Source: Yuukianura sp. NJ FZ-2021 (Eukaryota). Taken from it: 64,000 bases of DNA. Positions 57,331 through 64,000 of the stretch are shown piece after piece. A program made the translations under genes and the position numbers. The notes under the pieces are model-generated. The model saw only the letters and a program-made list of their open reading frames with translations, did no database searches and was not told where the DNA came from. The DNA lies in contig CM102284.1 in NCBI GenBank assembly GCA_046563655.1, positions 3,720,001 to 3,784,000 of the forward strand, written 5' to 3'. Each line of letters starts with the position of its first letter. Positions within the stretch are counted from its first letter, which is position 1.

Positions 57331-59054
57331 ATGATGATTGATGAGAGTTGGGTTAAAAGGATTCTGGAGCGTATAGAAGCGAAAGTGGACACTTTACAAG
57401 AAGAAATGAAACGGCAGAGAGAAGCTATTCTTACATGCTCGGACAATGTCAATCTTACAAAGAAAAATACGAATACGTTGGTAAATACTCTAGGTGTCGG
57501 CCCAACTGGAGTAGGTAAGTTTTACTATGCTTAATTTCCGCATTTTCATTAACTTAAGAAGCTCTTGTAACTGACTCCTATGTTATGTTTTCTACCTACG
57601 ATAGATATTATGAGAAAGCCAAAGCAAGCGACTCTGCAGAACTGGGTCAAGAAACCACCGGTTAGATCTCCACAAAAACTGGATCTTACTAAGCTTTCCA
57701 GCTATACAGGCGGTGAAAGGAAATCCAGCCAAAGCCAACACACGTCGAAAAATATTGAGAAAGAAATGGATACCAGTACGAAACTAGATTCTGCGTATTT
57801 CCCTGAAACGCAAAGATTTGCATCCTCAGATCCAATGCCTTTAGTAGGCGCAACTGTCATTTCTAGCGACAACATTTCACCACAACTTCCACCTAAATCA
57901 TCATCAACGCCAGCAGCGACCAAGAAACAAGAGAAGGATGATCTCATCGAAGAAATTACCATTAACGACGCCGATGAGAACGACTACAGTTGGCGCATCT
58001 TGCATTCACCTTCTAAGACTCAGCACAAATTCAAAACACTGCCAAAGAAGGATAGCAGCATGTCGCCCGTGCTCATTCGTCACCGAAATCATCCAGAAGA
58101 TTTTACTTTTACTGTTCCACCTCCTACTACAGCAATACCCTCGAAAAAACTTAAGTTCTCTTCTCCACTGAAAATGGAGGTGTCAAAAAACGATGTCGTT
58201 TCTAGAAATAACCCAAAGATTTCTGTTCCAAAAGAGGCTGAAGAAGTTGATTACGATTCGGATGAGACAATTTTCAATGACACCGAAATGGATCAGTTCC
58301 CGCCCACCCCACCGCCAGTTTCGAGACGCGCAGGAACTTCGGCAGTCGCTGGGACTTCGTCAATCGCTGGAACTTCGACTGCACCTCCGTCGAAAACTAG
58401 TTCTAATTCACGAGTGCCTTCGAGGATTATTGCTGACTTCGACAGGTACTTTTTAATAACTTTTTGAAACAACCAAACCTAACATTTTACTCATTCCACA
58501 TTTCCAATGTCTTTAAACTCAAATAGACTTCCGCAACCAGTATCCAAAGAGCCAAATTTTGCGTACAAACCTGAGAAAGCTATTCGAAAGAAAGCAGAGC
58601 GAAAGAAGCTTCCGGGTTGGGATTGTCCCTCTTGTAGAGATGTGAGTTATCACATGATTGACAAATCATTTAATTAATTTTTCATTGATTAATTAAGCGT
58701 GTTGTGATGTCCGATTTTATGTACTTATAATTTATCTTTGCAGTACTATGAAGCAGTAGGGTCACAGTTGGGACCTGGAGAACTTGAAAAACTGAGGAAT
58801 AAGTGTTCAAAACATCGCTCCAAACTTCCCGAGCCAGATTTTTTACAGAATACTCCACGGTGTACGTTACATGTTCAACCAAACATTGATCAATTACTAA
58901 TTACTACAATTAATTTGGTCATTTTCTTGCAATAGATTTCTGGGACTTGGACTTTCCTTCCACCCAAGAATGTATTCAGAATGGTCTCATTCGTTTCGGT
59001 GAGCGATCTCAAGTTCATCAACCTTCAGCAAAGGTACCGCGATCATTTCAGTAA
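57331..59054 (+). CDS. RBBP8: CtIP/Sae2-family DNA end-resection factor, 5 exons, ~458 aa
   Basis: N-terminal coiled coil and S/T/P-rich linker. C-terminal RKKAERKKLPGWDCPSCRDYY...CSKHR...NTPRYFWDLDFPSTQ carries the CxxC, an RHR-like motif and the TP and TQ phosphosites. Exons 57331-57514, 57605-58445, 58527-58641, 58744-58861 and 58936-59054. Confidence 0.88.
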
Positions 59055-59155
59055 ACTTTGTCCGCGATTATTGTTTATGTACGCATGGTAAATCGGAAAC
59101 TTCAGGGGGGATTTCGAATACAAAAGGTGGAATTCAAAGTGATTTTTGAAGTACT

Positions 59156-59799
59156 GGGCTGACATTTTGGTACACTTAGGACGTCCTAAGTTTAGGATAG
59201 GACAAAACTTAGGATGACTTAGGACAAACGAGATTTTGGTATAGTTAGGATCAACATGATCCCAGAATTATCCTAAATCGTTACAATCATCGCCTATTCG
59301 TACGTTTAACAGAAACAAATTAATTTTAGCAATAATTCCTACAACTAAATAATAATTAATTGCCATTCTGTTTTTCGTTGTTACTTTTTACTCAGTTTAG
59401 TTTTAATCGACTATTATTGCATTGAAACTGTGTTTGATTAATATATATATGATTGTTATAATTAATTTATGCATAAGTAACTCGATTTCATGCCGTATTA
59501 ACGCAAAATCTGAATTTAAAAGTGAAATTACAATAGTTAGGACTGAGTTAGGCATAGCAGAGACCGACCCTAAAGTTAGGACAAATTCTTGGACAGATAG
59601 GAGCGCCTAACTCTACCAAAATATTGGCAGTCCTAAGTACCCTTTTTCTATTGCCCAAGTTCAGACTTAGGACCATGCTAGGATTTGCTACCAAAATCCC
59701 ACCAGTTAGGAAATCCTAGCACAGTCCCAACTTTTGTCCCAAATAGTTAGGATCCGCCTAAGTTAGGAGATCCTAAGTTTGCTACCAAAATGTCAGCCC
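59156..59799. mobile_element. Non-autonomous TIR element (MITE), 644 bp
   Basis: 17-bp perfect TIR GGGCTGACATTTTGGTA/TACCAAAATGTCAGCCC. Flanks TGAAGTACT and TGAAGTCT look like an 8-9 bp TSD with one indel. Many internal TTAGG/CCTAA and CTACCAAAAT motifs; no coding capacity. Confidence 0.85.
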
Positions 59800-59898: not shown

Positions 59899-62800
59899 GA
59901 TGGAGAATTTTGAGGATCTGATTCTGACTGTCGTCCCTGAGGGGCAAGAAGCAGAAACTTTAGCGGCTGCTGGATCGAACGAAGGGCAGCGAACAATTGT
60001 TGTCACCGAAGTTCGTAACAATCCTCAAGAGGAAGATGACAGCAAGAATAAGCAAATAGAAAGTTTACAAGGCAGAGTTGAGCAACTGGAAGACCAAGTC
60101 CATTTCTTGGAAGATGAGTTGCGGATTATGCGACGAAAAATTCATGCCAGCATGCCGTCAAATAGCTACAATACTATTCGGCGAACTGTACTTGAAGTTC
60201 TGAGTAAACAAACGTTGAAGGTTTCTCTCTCCGATTTTGAAGATGAAATGGGTAAGTTCGCTTTTCACTCCAAAATACTTACGAGGCATGCTTTTTCACG
60301 TGATCTCGAAATTTTGAATTTTAGAGTTATAGTCGAGTTCCTGAAGTAAGCACAAACATTTTGGTGCTAATTTTAGTTGCGAACGCAAAAAAAAAAAAAA
60401 AATTCTACCCCAGTATTTGAACCTGCGTTCCCCGCCTCAAAGAACAAAAAATGACAAAACGCTTTCTCCCCCGCCACACAGGGGATTTCATGGACACCTG
60501 GATGAATATTCTCCCCTTTGTCGTCGACACAAAAACGTTTTTTTCACGGGAGAAAATTAATTTCAAAAACTCCGTTTTTTTTCAAAAAATGGACGTGAAT
60601 CCAATCGAAATTGCGAAAAAGTTCGTCAAAATTGTTGAGTATGAGTTTGGAGAGTATAATCTATCCACTATGTGTGAAAGTACAGACGCTTTTGCTGACA
60701 AGTTGTACTCAACTTTCCTCCAGCTCCTTGATGACTTTGTTTTTGGAGAAGAAGAGGACTTGATAGCTCCAGGTAAGTGAAAGTCAAAAGTTTCTCTCAA
60801 TAGTCCCTTCAAAAATGTTCCACAACTTTGTTTTTATACATTTTTTAGACACAGTCGATGAAAATTTTGAATCGGAAGATGAAAGTATTGAGGCCAACGA
60901 AATCCCTTTACGCGAAAAGAAAAGAATACTGGATTTTGTTGACTTACATCCTAACTACAGCCTACCTACTCTAAAACGTAAAGGATGTGCTTCACTTCCA
61001 TCCAAATCTCGTCTACCCTTTTGGAGAAAGCAAATTCTGGAAGGAGGAACGAAACGAGAAAAGCTACGCCAAATTAACAAGTTTGTGCTTCAAAATTTTG
61101 TGGCTTCACGTGACTCAGGCAAAATCCTCCGGACAAAAAATCTGCAACAGTGGGGAATTCAAAAGGCAACCGAAATTCAAGCAAATTTTTTTAGAGCAAG
61201 CAGAAGTTGGGCTGACAATTTTAAATCAAAACATCGAATTAAAAGCCGTCGAATCAACCTTCTCCTAAGCCGTCATGAAGTATCAAATTCAGAGGATCTC
61301 ATGGAGAAAGCAGAATCGTTTCGAGTGAAAGTGAAGGAGAAAATGAAAAATTACACACCAGCCCAAATCATCAATACTGACCAGTGTGGTTTTGCCTACG
61401 AAATTTATTCTGCAAGGACCTTAAACTTCATAGGAGAAAAGAGGGTGAAAGGCTGCGTCCTTTCTCCAAAAAATCTAGTGACACATACATATACTGTGCA
61501 GTATGTCATTTCTGCTCAAGGAAATATTGTTGGGAATGTGTTCATTTGTCTCCAAGAAAACAGCGGAAGGATTGGACCAATAGTGGAAAACTCACTTTTT
61601 CCAGCACCAAACGTGACCTTGACCTGCAGCCATTCGGGAAAACTCAACTCCAGTTTGGTTAAATACTTCAACGAGAAAGTGGTAGCTCCGGAAATGAAAG
61701 AAGACTTTCTCTACCTGATTGATTCTTGGAAAGGTCAAACAAATTTAGACCTTTATGATGAAGTTTTTGGAGAAAGTACAGTGAAAGCAGAAGTTCTCGT
61801 CATACCTGAAAAATGTACCTCAACTTGCCAACCCCTGGACACATATTTCCATCGTCAATTGAAAATTCTAGCTCGAGCAATAATCAACCACTGTGACATT
61901 TTTGTGGAACCAAATGGAATCCATCCACAAGACCGCATAACAACAAGAAATGGAATCATAAAAATGCAAAGCCTACTTCACCACCAATTATCAGCTCCAG
62001 TCTTCAATGCCATGATTCGTTATTGCTTTTTTTCAGCAGGATTTCTGGAAGAAGATGACAAGGAGGAATTTTTATCAGTTCAACAGGTCTGTTTTCACTG
62101 GGAAAAGGAAAATTCCACTATTTGTGAAATTTGCGCAAAGGAAAATCGGTTCATTCGTTGCAGCCGTTGTTTTAAAACTTTATGTTTTTCTTGTTTTTTT
62201 TTTATGTACCACTTGGCGGAGTGTCAAAAGTAATTAAAAAGTTTTACTGAAATTAAATTTGAAAAAGTTTTTGGTGAAAGTGAATTATGGTGGCTAATAT
62301 CTAACTATTTACATTCGCTAGATTGAAGTTTACCTGGTGTTGCATGTGAGAAAGCGTCTGGGCGTTTTTTGTCCTTTGAGGCGGGGACGCGGGTTCAAAT
62401 ACTGGGGTAGAATTTTTAGAATTTTTTTTTTTTTTGCGTTCGCAACTAAAACTACCACCAAAATGTTTGTGCTTACATCAGGAACTCGACTACAACTCTA
62501 GAATTCCAAATTTCGAGATCACGTGGAAAAGCATCCCTCGTTAGTACATCCAACTTATCGTTATGCTTGTTTACGTTTATTATAGTAACATTGTTTGTAA
62601 CAGAATCGGAAGAACCAGTCGGACGATCCCATCAAAGTCAAGGGCAGAAAAGACGCAGGTATGAGAATGGATTCTCTGACGCAGAAGAAGACGATGATTT
62701 CAGCGAAGATGAACCCATAGGGAGAGAACCCCGAGTTCGTAAACGTAGACGTCCGGGTCGTCCACCGAAGGGATCAACACGGAAGCGTAATTAATTGACT

Positions 62801-63006
62801 CCACACAGTTTAGATTACATTTTCGAAAAGGCACTAGCCATGACTAAACCTTTGTCACTTGAAATTGCTTTGTATAGCCAAGACGTTTCGGGTAGAACTG
62901 ACTCCGCCTCCACCTAAGGTCAGTCGTCCGAGGGGAAGGCCGCGGCGGGTAGCCAAACAGGAAGAGGATCTGCCGAACGCTGAAACTGAAGACAATATGG
63001 ACTCAC
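59899..63006 (+). CDS. Uncharacterised coiled-coil plus AT-hook protein exons (59899-60251, 62604-62787, 62878-63006); 3' end unresolved
   Basis: Heptad-rich IESLQGRVEQLEDQVHFLEDELRIMRRKI, phase-1 GT-AG introns that keep the frame, AT-hooks RRPGRPPK and RPRGRPRR, and an acidic stretch. Confidence 0.6.
60282..62540 (+). mobile_element. Tc4/Tc5-type (pogo-related) DNA transposon, 2.26 kb, inserted in an intron
   Basis: Imperfect TIRs of ~200 bp begin CGAGG(C/G)ATGCTTTT. TTA is duplicated on both sides (60279-60281, 62541-62543), reconstituting a CTTAG empty site. Confidence 0.9.
60589..62233 (+). CDS. Tc5-like transposase (CENP-B-type HTH, DD38D catalytic domain, Cys-rich C-terminus), 2 exons, ~522 aa
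   Basis: FRASRSWADNFKSKHRI, NTDQCG, LIDSWKGQ, QPLDTYF, and C-terminal CEICAKENRFIRCSRCFKTLCFSCFFFMYH. Intron 60773-60848 is in frame. Confidence 0.9.
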
Positions 63007-63079
63007 GTAAGTTATTTACTTCAACGCTCAATATTAAAAAAACAGTATTTTTTAATACTGGTTCATTGCAACCGCTGAA

Positions 63080-63919
63080 AGGAATACCCTCGAAAAACTT
63101 AAATAGGTTGTAAAAAAACGATATAAGTTTCTAGAAACAACTCAAAAATTCCATCTTCAAAAGAAGTTGACGTTGTTGACTATGATTCGGATGAGACAAT
63201 TTTCAATGACACAGAAATCGAACAGTTTCCACCTACTCCACCACCAGCTCAAGTTTCGAGACGCTCTGGAACTTCGTCAGTCGCTGGAACGTTGACTGCA
63301 TCTCAAAGGAAAACTAATTCGAATTCAAGGCCACCTTCCAGACTCATTGCTGACTTCGACAGGTACTTTTTAAAAGTTTTGTTAAACGAAACATTTTATG
63401 CACTTGGTACATATTGACAATGGTTTTAAACTTACATAGACTTCCGCAACCAGTATCCAAGGAACCAAATTTTGCCTACAAACCTGAGAAAGCCATTCGA
63501 AAGAAAGCAGAGCGAAAGAATCTTCCAGGGTGGGATTGCCCCTCTTGCCGATGCGTAAGTTGTCGAATAGCTGACGATTATTAATTAATACTTTTTCGTG
63601 AAGTCTACATGATCTTTTTCGATTGATGTTTTCAGTATTATGAAGCCATGGAGTCACAATTGGGACCTGGAGAACTTGAAAAACTGAGGAATAAGTGTTC
63701 AAAACATCGCTCCAAACTTCCCGAGCCAGATTTTTTACATAATACTCCACGGTGTACGTTACCTGTTCAACCAAACATTGATCAATTACTAATTACTACA
63801 ATTAATTTGGTCATTTTCTTGTAATAGATTTCTGGGACTTGGACTTTCCTTCCACCCAAGAATGTATTCAGAATGGTCTCATTCGTTTCGGTGAGCGATC
63901 TCAAGTTCATCAACCGTAA
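63080..63919 (+). CDS. Duplicated 3' half of CtIP (second copy of the SAE2-type domain); either the 3' part of a chimeric gene or a recent pseudogene
   Basis: Homologous to ~58130-59110, with 3' homology running to the window end. Three introns are at the same positions. The frame is open from ~63128 to TAA at 63917-63919, 8 codons earlier than copy 1. The 5' edge (63080-63127) has indels. Confidence 0.7.
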
Positions 63920-64000
63920 GCAAAGGTACCGCGATCATTCCGGTCAACTTCGTCTGCGATTTTTATTTATGTACGCATATTACATCGGAAACTTCAGGGG

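Follow-up and report, generated by a model that had tools for sequence, protein, structure and literature searches.

The 64,000-nucleotide (nt) stretch of Yuukianura sp. NJ FZ-2021 DNA analysed here (assembly GCA_046563655.1, contig CM102284.1, forward strand, positions 3,720,001 to 3,784,000; referred to below as the window, with positions counted from its first letter) carries near its end a gene of the CtIP/Sae2 type, the first three exons of a second gene, which we call X, and a partial copy of the CtIP/Sae2-like gene, in this order and on one strand (Table 1). Homology to the parent gene (copy 1) starts within the intron that follows X exon 3, and the subject of this analysis is whether the X exons and the copied CtIP tail may together form one chimeric gene. 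The locus had been singled out in an earlier reading of the DNA (the original prediction), which proposed a chimeric CtIP paralogue with a new coiled-coil/AT-hook N-terminus joined to a conserved duplicate of the CtIP C-terminal domain. The copied exons are designated E2' to E5' after exons 2 to 5 of the parent.

Table 1. Features of the CtIP/Sae2-X locus, in window coordinates, and identity of the copy to the parent gene by segment
Feature	Position	Strand	Remarks
Parent CtIP/Sae2-like gene (copy 1)	57331..59054	+	Spliced model open, GT/AG at all junctions
Parent exons	57331-57514, 57605-58445, 58527-58641, 58744-58861, 58936-59054	+	Product of 458 amino acids
X exon 1, start codon followed by a long predicted helix (coiled-coil candidate)	59900..60251	+	Phase 1 donor; orthologue matches
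Tc5/pogo-like DNA transposon in X intron 1	60276..62546	+	Same orientation as X; 2271 nt
X exon 2, acidic patch and first AT-hook (GRP core)	62604..62786	+	Phase 1 donor; internal GT at 62659
X exon 3, second canonical AT-hook (PRGRP core)	62878..63006	+	Phase 1 donor 63006/GTAAGT; exon also in the relative's contig L001
Hybrid intron	63007..63127	+	X-type start, decayed end of CtIP exon 2, AAG acceptor
E2', copy of the last part of CtIP exon 2	63128/63135-63362	+	80% nt identity to copy 1 (approximate)
E3', with CxxC motif (CPSC)	63440..63554	+	91% identical to copy 1
E4', with K-H-R (at the RHR place) and TP site	63636..63753	+	All differences but one in the first 24 nt
E5', end of the Sae2 domain	63828..63919	+	100% identical to copy 1 up to 63915
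Gene-conversion tract between the copies	63661..63915	.	Most of E4', whole intron 4, E5'
3' flank of the copy	63920..64000	+	75/87 nt identical over 63914-64000; homology continues at the window end
Segment identity, copy versus parent			Decayed stretch before the open frame 80%, E2' 80%, intron 2 77%
Segment identity, copy versus parent			E3' 91%, intron 3 71%, E4' 94%
Segment identity, copy versus parent			Intron 4 97%, E5' 100%, after the stop 86%

The SAE2 family PF08573 was the sole Pfam match of parent exon 3 (14.5 bits, profile positions 5-23) and of parent exon 5 (13.6 bits, positions 100-110), and the copy gave the same picture, with E3' scoring 14.2 bits (5-23) and E5' 14.0 bits (100-110), again as sole and collinear matches, one at each end of the profile; E4 and E4' had no Pfam match in this single-exon scan. 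The gathering score of PF08573 is 19.8 bits for a whole protein, and since the exons were scanned singly the pieces fall under that cut-off; the two pieces of the copy sum to about 28 bits in this exon-wise scan. In a blastn comparison, 63105-64000 aligned to 58178-59108 with 82.2% of the 939 columns identical, the two segments being offset by 4892 nt, and no third copy of the CtIP 3' half was found in the 64-kilobase (kb) window. All three parental introns are kept in place in the copy, with GT/AG at every internal junction and all six internal splice sites intact, in agreement with the original prediction of a CtIP 3' half repeated about 4.9 kb downstream with its splice sites preserved. The retained introns rule out a retrocopy or processed pseudogene and identify a partial duplicate made at the DNA level, and the unrelated flanks of the two copies rule out an assembly or haplotype artefact. 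The copy begins in the middle of exon 2 and, as had been noticed earlier, is a partial duplicate with no N-terminus of its own; CtIP's own N-terminal coiled coil is missing from it, and a BLASTP comparison of X exon 1 with parent exon 1 found no similarity.

Compared with the CtIP/Sae2/Ctp1/COM-1 family (PF08573), the copy shares the C-terminal CxxC motif, the K/R-H-R position, the TP site and the terminal motif, but lacks the N-terminal helix of the family and about 270 residues. The CxxC motif, which is defined for the CtIP family in a passage of PMC4551917, reads CPSC in both E3 and E3'. At the place of the RHR motif, both CtIP copies (58744-58861 and 63636-63753) read K-H-R; the first arginine is a lysine in both, and the second arginine, the residue stressed in parts of PMC4551917 and PMC6344080, is kept. 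Passages of the same two papers (PMC4551917, PMC6344080) describe CtIP/Sae2 function as dependent on both the C-terminal domain and N-terminal oligomerisation. Protein searches with E2', against longer proteins, and with the 46-residue contiguous frame of E5 found no relative, and no Rfam family reached its gathering score anywhere in the window (1-64000).

The exons upstream of the copy had been described as a new N-terminus, and in this respect the original prediction did not hold. The sequence comparisons identify them as exons 1 to 3 of an older neighbour gene with orthologues, a member of a pre-existing, small, conserved and unnamed family found here only in environmental contigs. A HMMER search with 59900-60250 against 1.84 billion representatives recovered four proteins, with P0005 as a cluster mate of P0003. 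The identity to X exon 1 was 72% for P0001 and 68% for P0002 over the whole exon, about 80% for P0003 and P0005 (81% for P0005), and about 30% for P0004, which is a distant relative. P0001 and P0002 are 64% identical to each other, and X exon 1 of the window is no more diverged than these orthologues are from one another. P0003 and P0005 are uninterrupted frames of 262 and 275 amino acids on contigs of about 1.1-1.7 kb, in which the exon 1 part is followed by an acidic patch, two AT-hooks and then an acidic tail of about 130 amino acids; proteins of the X family combine a helix, an acidic patch and two AT-hooks with an acidic tail, and they close with a basic end. When the spliced X model (59900-60251, 62604-62786, 62878-63006) was aligned with the intronless P0005, 111 of 152 residues were identical across both junctions, which bears out the proposed junction 60251>62604 and likewise 62786>62878. 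X exon 3 matched P0003/P0005 with 83% identity over 24 amino acids (tblastn), and the acidic tail of X was not found anywhere in the window when P0003 and P0005 were used as tblastn queries.

A metagenome scan with X exon 1 found one locus, on a genomic contig of a relative (L001), which has the same X exons and, like P0003 and P0005, goes on into the acidic tail; its next exon follows the second AT-hook exon at a distance of about 80 nt. L001 (783-1440) splits what is the single exon 2 of the window (62604-62786) with one more intron, some 370 nt long; within the X family an intron has been either gained or lost at this place. AlphaFold2 predicted a helix at residues 42-83 of X exon 1, with a predicted local distance difference test score (pLDDT) of 85-93 over residues 51-80; in a complex prediction with two copies of the X helix, a control scored higher. 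GRP cores flanked by basic residues and proline, which correspond to the AT-hook as a passage of PMC11354804 defines it (a GRP core flanked by K/R/P), occur once in X exon 2 and once in exon 3, and both are kept in P0005 and L001. The same-strand exons with an acidic patch, two AT-hooks and a predicted helix are present as the original prediction had described them, with phase-compatible donors. X resembles AT-hook proteins of the HMGA type in its pair of GRP cores with flanking K/R/P, of which the second is PRGRP, but differs from them in its predicted coiled-coil head, in the long acidic tail of its orthologues and in the lack of a Pfam match to its hooks. No Pfam domain was found in the X exons or in P0005, and neither an ESM Atlas search with P0005 (no usable match) nor a protein search with P0003 (which recovered only P0003 itself) added relatives. 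Matches of X exon 1, P0001 and P0004 to LCD1 (E = 4.5e-4) and to other coiled-coil families were sub-threshold and were taken as coiled-coil noise.

The two genes meet in a hybrid intron. The first 70 nt or so of this intron match nothing in copy 1 and presumably represent X intron; decayed homology to CtIP exon 2, with 1-nt insertions or deletions (indels) and stop codons, extends upstream from 63128 for about 50 nt. Two donor genes can be identified, adjacent and on the same strand, with a single hybrid junction between them, the features by which a chimeric duplicate is recognised. The gene order, the position of the hybrid intron after X exon 3 and the failure to find the X tail in the window argue for a single tandem duplication. 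The duplicated segment would have begun midway through exon 2 of the CtIP/Sae2-like gene and extended, via the intergenic spacer, to X intron 3, and the junction would set the end of CtIP exon 2 and exons 3-5 right behind X exons 1-3, so that the left copy of X would run into CtIP sequence in place of its own acidic tail. If this model is right, another spacer and a complete X should lie past position 64000. A part of the review PMC3449122 states that one duplication that partly spans two adjacent genes immediately yields a chimeric duplicate, and it cites Sdic as a case. In Drosophila Sdic, derived from Cdic and AnnX, the latter half of the upstream gene came to be linked to the 5' part of the gene next to it downstream, as here (the same part of PMC3449122), and the parents at our locus are likewise adjacent, on the same strand and linked by a hybrid junction. 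Unlike Sdic, the copy described here is old (synonymous divergence, dS, of about 0.6), still exchanges sequence with its parent and is known from genomic DNA alone.

A stop codon at 63124-63126 closes the frame directly before 63127, and the copy contains no in-frame ATG before E4'; the conserved frame of the copy therefore needs an upstream coding exon, and the absence of an in-frame ATG also rules out a stand-alone or independently trans-spliced mRNA from which E2' and E3' would be translated. The X donors at 60251, 62786 and 63006 are all of phase 1, and each opens the frame to 63919 when it is joined to the AAG acceptor at 63127. Both in-frame joins of the original prediction are present, 63006>63128 giving an open frame of about 407 codons and 62658>63135 one of 319 codons. 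Other in-frame exon starts for phase-1 donors are 63164 and 63167 (AAG-type) and also 63215, but conservation of a coding type upstream of 63170 speaks against the acceptor for 63215. Copy 1 reads CG where the copy has the AG at 63126-63127, and the sequence indicates that this AG is most likely derived in the copy. The ten junctions read in the window have six TAG, three CAG and one AAG acceptors, TAG being the commonest, and acceptors in this genome are loose. Use of an AAG acceptor by Lon in this window, as predicted earlier, was confirmed for the Lon protease intron (about 51700-51619, minus strand), where the junction is set by a stop codon close ahead of it, by the lack of any other AG in between and by the alignment of the two exons to consecutive residues of human LONP1 chains. 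The X orthologue in L001 also uses an AAG acceptor.

Divergence between the copy and its parent is uneven. Within 63661-63915 there are only 3 differences in 255 nt, intron 4 included, and the next 85 nt contain 12; at a divergence rate of 14%, the binomial probability of 3 or fewer differences in the tract is about 1e-13. Judged by these figures, 63661-63915 is a gene-conversion tract between copy and parent. Given this conversion, the conservation of E4' and E5', and with it that of the RHR, TP and terminal motifs, is uninformative on selection. The intron adjoining the exon-3 equivalent had been described as heavily diverged, and the two flanking introns are 77% and 71% identical as compared with 91% for the exon. 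The description of the copy as a conserved duplicate is therefore valid in part: E2' and E3' are constrained, but the likeness of E4' and E5' is mostly that of a conversion tract.

We estimated the ratio of non-synonymous to synonymous divergence (dN/dS, omega) pairwise between copy and parent by the Nei-Gojobori method outside the conversion tract, that is, over E2' and E3'. Omega was 0.23 for E2' (dS 0.62), which carries two indels of 6 and 18 nt, both multiples of three, and 0.06 for E3' (dS 0.54), which has 10 synonymous and 3 non-synonymous substitutions; the alignment agrees with the earlier count of 9 synonymous against 2 amino-acid-changing codons in the exon-3 equivalent. The pooled omega between the two copies was 0.17 at a dS of about 0.6 (32.5 synonymous and 24.5 non-synonymous substitutions). 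The 112 aligned codons include 26 with synonymous differences and 20 with an amino-acid change, leaving 92 of 112 residues identical, and the differences at codon positions 1, 2 and 3 number 13, 9 and 35 (chi-square p = 3e-5). We compared these values with simulated neutral decay, in which the parent was constrained and the copy neutral since its birth, with dS matched at 0.56-0.63, a frame of 118 codons and 12000 replicates for each of four settings. The frame stayed open in 7-8% of replicates (839-997 per setting), and among the open replicates an omega of 0.172 or less was reached 0, 0, 2 and 0 times across the four settings. The low omega, the excess of third-position differences, the frame-keeping indels and the simulation support the view, already put forward in the original prediction, that the copied tail has been under purifying selection outside the conversion tract.

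The duplication and its breakpoint, the constraint on the tail, the gene conversion, the phase compatibility of the donors and the standing of X as a real conserved gene were demonstrated at the level of the DNA sequence. The best reading of this evidence, which we consider somewhat likelier to be right than wrong, is that the locus holds a chimeric X::CtIP-tail gene that arose by one tandem duplication across two neighbouring genes. Transcription would start from the X promoter, and the X donor at 63006 (or that at 62786 or 60251) would be joined to the AAG acceptor at 63127, or to 63163 or 63166. The predicted product of about 400 amino acids would carry the X helix, the acidic patch, two AT-hooks and a CtIP tail of about 185 amino acids with the CxxC, K-H-R, TP and terminal Sae2 motifs. 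Such a tail would retain the part that acts with Mre11-Rad50 in Sae2/Ctp1/CtIP, and the CtIP-type tetramerisation helix would be replaced by the X helix and by hooks that contact the minor groove of DNA. The X helix may self-associate, and the product may have a role in end resection; its most likely mode of action would be that of a CtIP-like cofactor or competitor under X control. The function put forward in the original prediction, a second resection factor retargeted to AT-rich DNA or a competitor of CtIP, is speculative. Our further proposal, that the chimera is a working second factor of the Sae2/CtIP type in which the tetramerisation helix has been swapped for an unrelated helix and two AT-hooks, and which is driven by the promoter of a neighbour and kept partly identical to its parent by conversion, is tentative and may well prove wrong.

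Several observations weigh against a chimeric X::CtIP-tail gene. None of the four proteins found with X exon 1 among the 1.84 billion representatives has a CtIP part, and they are short fragments; because the relatives of X are short fragments and the searches with E2' and E5 found none, the databases hardly test the architecture. The window ends 81 nt past the stop codon of the copy, and X tail exons could follow, in which case the CtIP exons would be optional or skipped. The TTTCTAG acceptor at 63135, located 7 nt past the AAG, shifts the frame and brings in an early stop when joined to any of the three regular X donors, and an in-frame product would depend on a weaker acceptor than the competing TAG. 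The copy is shorter than the parent by the last 9 codons owing to a derived stop at 63917-63919, and a transposon of 2.27 kb with splice sites of its own and in the same orientation lies within X intron 1. Lastly, when a branch omega of 0.5 was simulated for the copy, the observed value was reached in 3-21% of open replicates, and a recent death of the copied gene is compatible with the data.

The alternative that survives best, although we regard it as unlikely, is that the copy is a dead or dying partial duplicate beside or inside X, whose likeness to the parent was kept by conversion and whose frame is left over from a recently dead gene. It would account for a conversion tract spanning E4', intron 4 and E5', for the missing 5' end and start codon of the copy, for its truncated C-terminus, for the transposon within X intron 1 and for the strongest nearby acceptor being out of frame with X, and a branch omega of 0.5 is compatible with the simulation. 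However, conversion lowers dN and dS equally and cannot yield an omega of 0.17, and the differences outside the tract concentrate on third codon positions. The indels keep the frame and all splice sites are intact, and neutral decay produced the observed omega in no more than 2 of 839 open replicates, the frame having been open in only 7-8% of all replicates.

A less probable alternative is that the CtIP copy is translated without the X helix and AT-hooks, either from an internal promoter with a start at an ATG late in X exon 3, or as a short CtIP isoform in which parent exon 1 (donor 57514) is spliced over 5.6 kb to 63128. An in-frame methionine is indeed located in X exon 3, four codons ahead of the donor, and parent exon 1, 184 nt in length with a phase 1 donor, fits 63128. 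Yet an internal start comes with no promoter evidence, the introns read here measure 74-128 nt except for the one bearing the transposon, so that a 5.6-kb intron over a same-strand gene would be exceptional, and X exons 1-3 are preserved intact directly upstream of the copy. It is very improbable that the main product is the 62658>63135 join of the original prediction, which would keep the X helix and skip the acidic patch and both AT-hooks: its frame is open, TTTCTAG is a strong acceptor that requires a phase-2 donor and is in frame only with the passable internal GT of exon 2 at 62659 (GTATGA), but this donor lies within a coding exon conserved beyond the site, is read through in P0003 and P0005, has no GT in L001 and would have to outcompete three regular donors.

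Two mobile or repeat-bounded elements are found at the locus. The Tc5/pogo-like transposon in X intron 1 has inverted repeats of about 200 nt at its ends (88.5-93% match) and TA at both ends, consistent with a TA duplication, and it encodes an intact transposase of 522 amino acids in two exons (60589-60772 and 60849-62233), which gave sub-threshold Pfam matches to Transp_Tc5_C, HTH_Tnp_Tc5 and DDE_1; the transposon is apparently autonomous, and without it X intron 1 measures 81 nt. A non-coding element of about 640 nt (59156-59799), bounded by inverted repeats of some 40 nt (84% match), occupies most of the spacer between the CtIP/Sae2-like gene and X, so that only about 100 nt separate it from the X start codon.

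CtIP/Sae2 is usually a single gene. The vertebrate paralogue RBBP8NL is related to N-terminal CtIP sequence and likewise keeps only one end of CtIP, but the opposite one: the copy described here keeps the C-terminal Sae2 domain and would obtain its N-terminus from another gene. A limited literature search found no report of a chimera with a CtIP tail, and the domain combination was not seen among the proteins recovered in our protein searches. By the sequence, the locus originated in an ordinary way, through tandem duplication, and the chimera remains a candidate; within one 7-kb stretch the locus nevertheless offers a clear record of chimeric gene formation, including both parents, the breakpoint, the hybrid intron, an AG absent from the parent copy, and ongoing conversion. 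If the chimeric X::CtIP-tail gene is real, it would amount to a domain swap made by nature, which would test what the CtIP tail requires for acting with Mre11-Rad50. With a selected tail placed after a helix and DNA hooks of foreign origin, one could ask whether any oligomerising or DNA-tethering head suffices, and the chimeric protein would show whether it helps the parent CtIP or competes with it.

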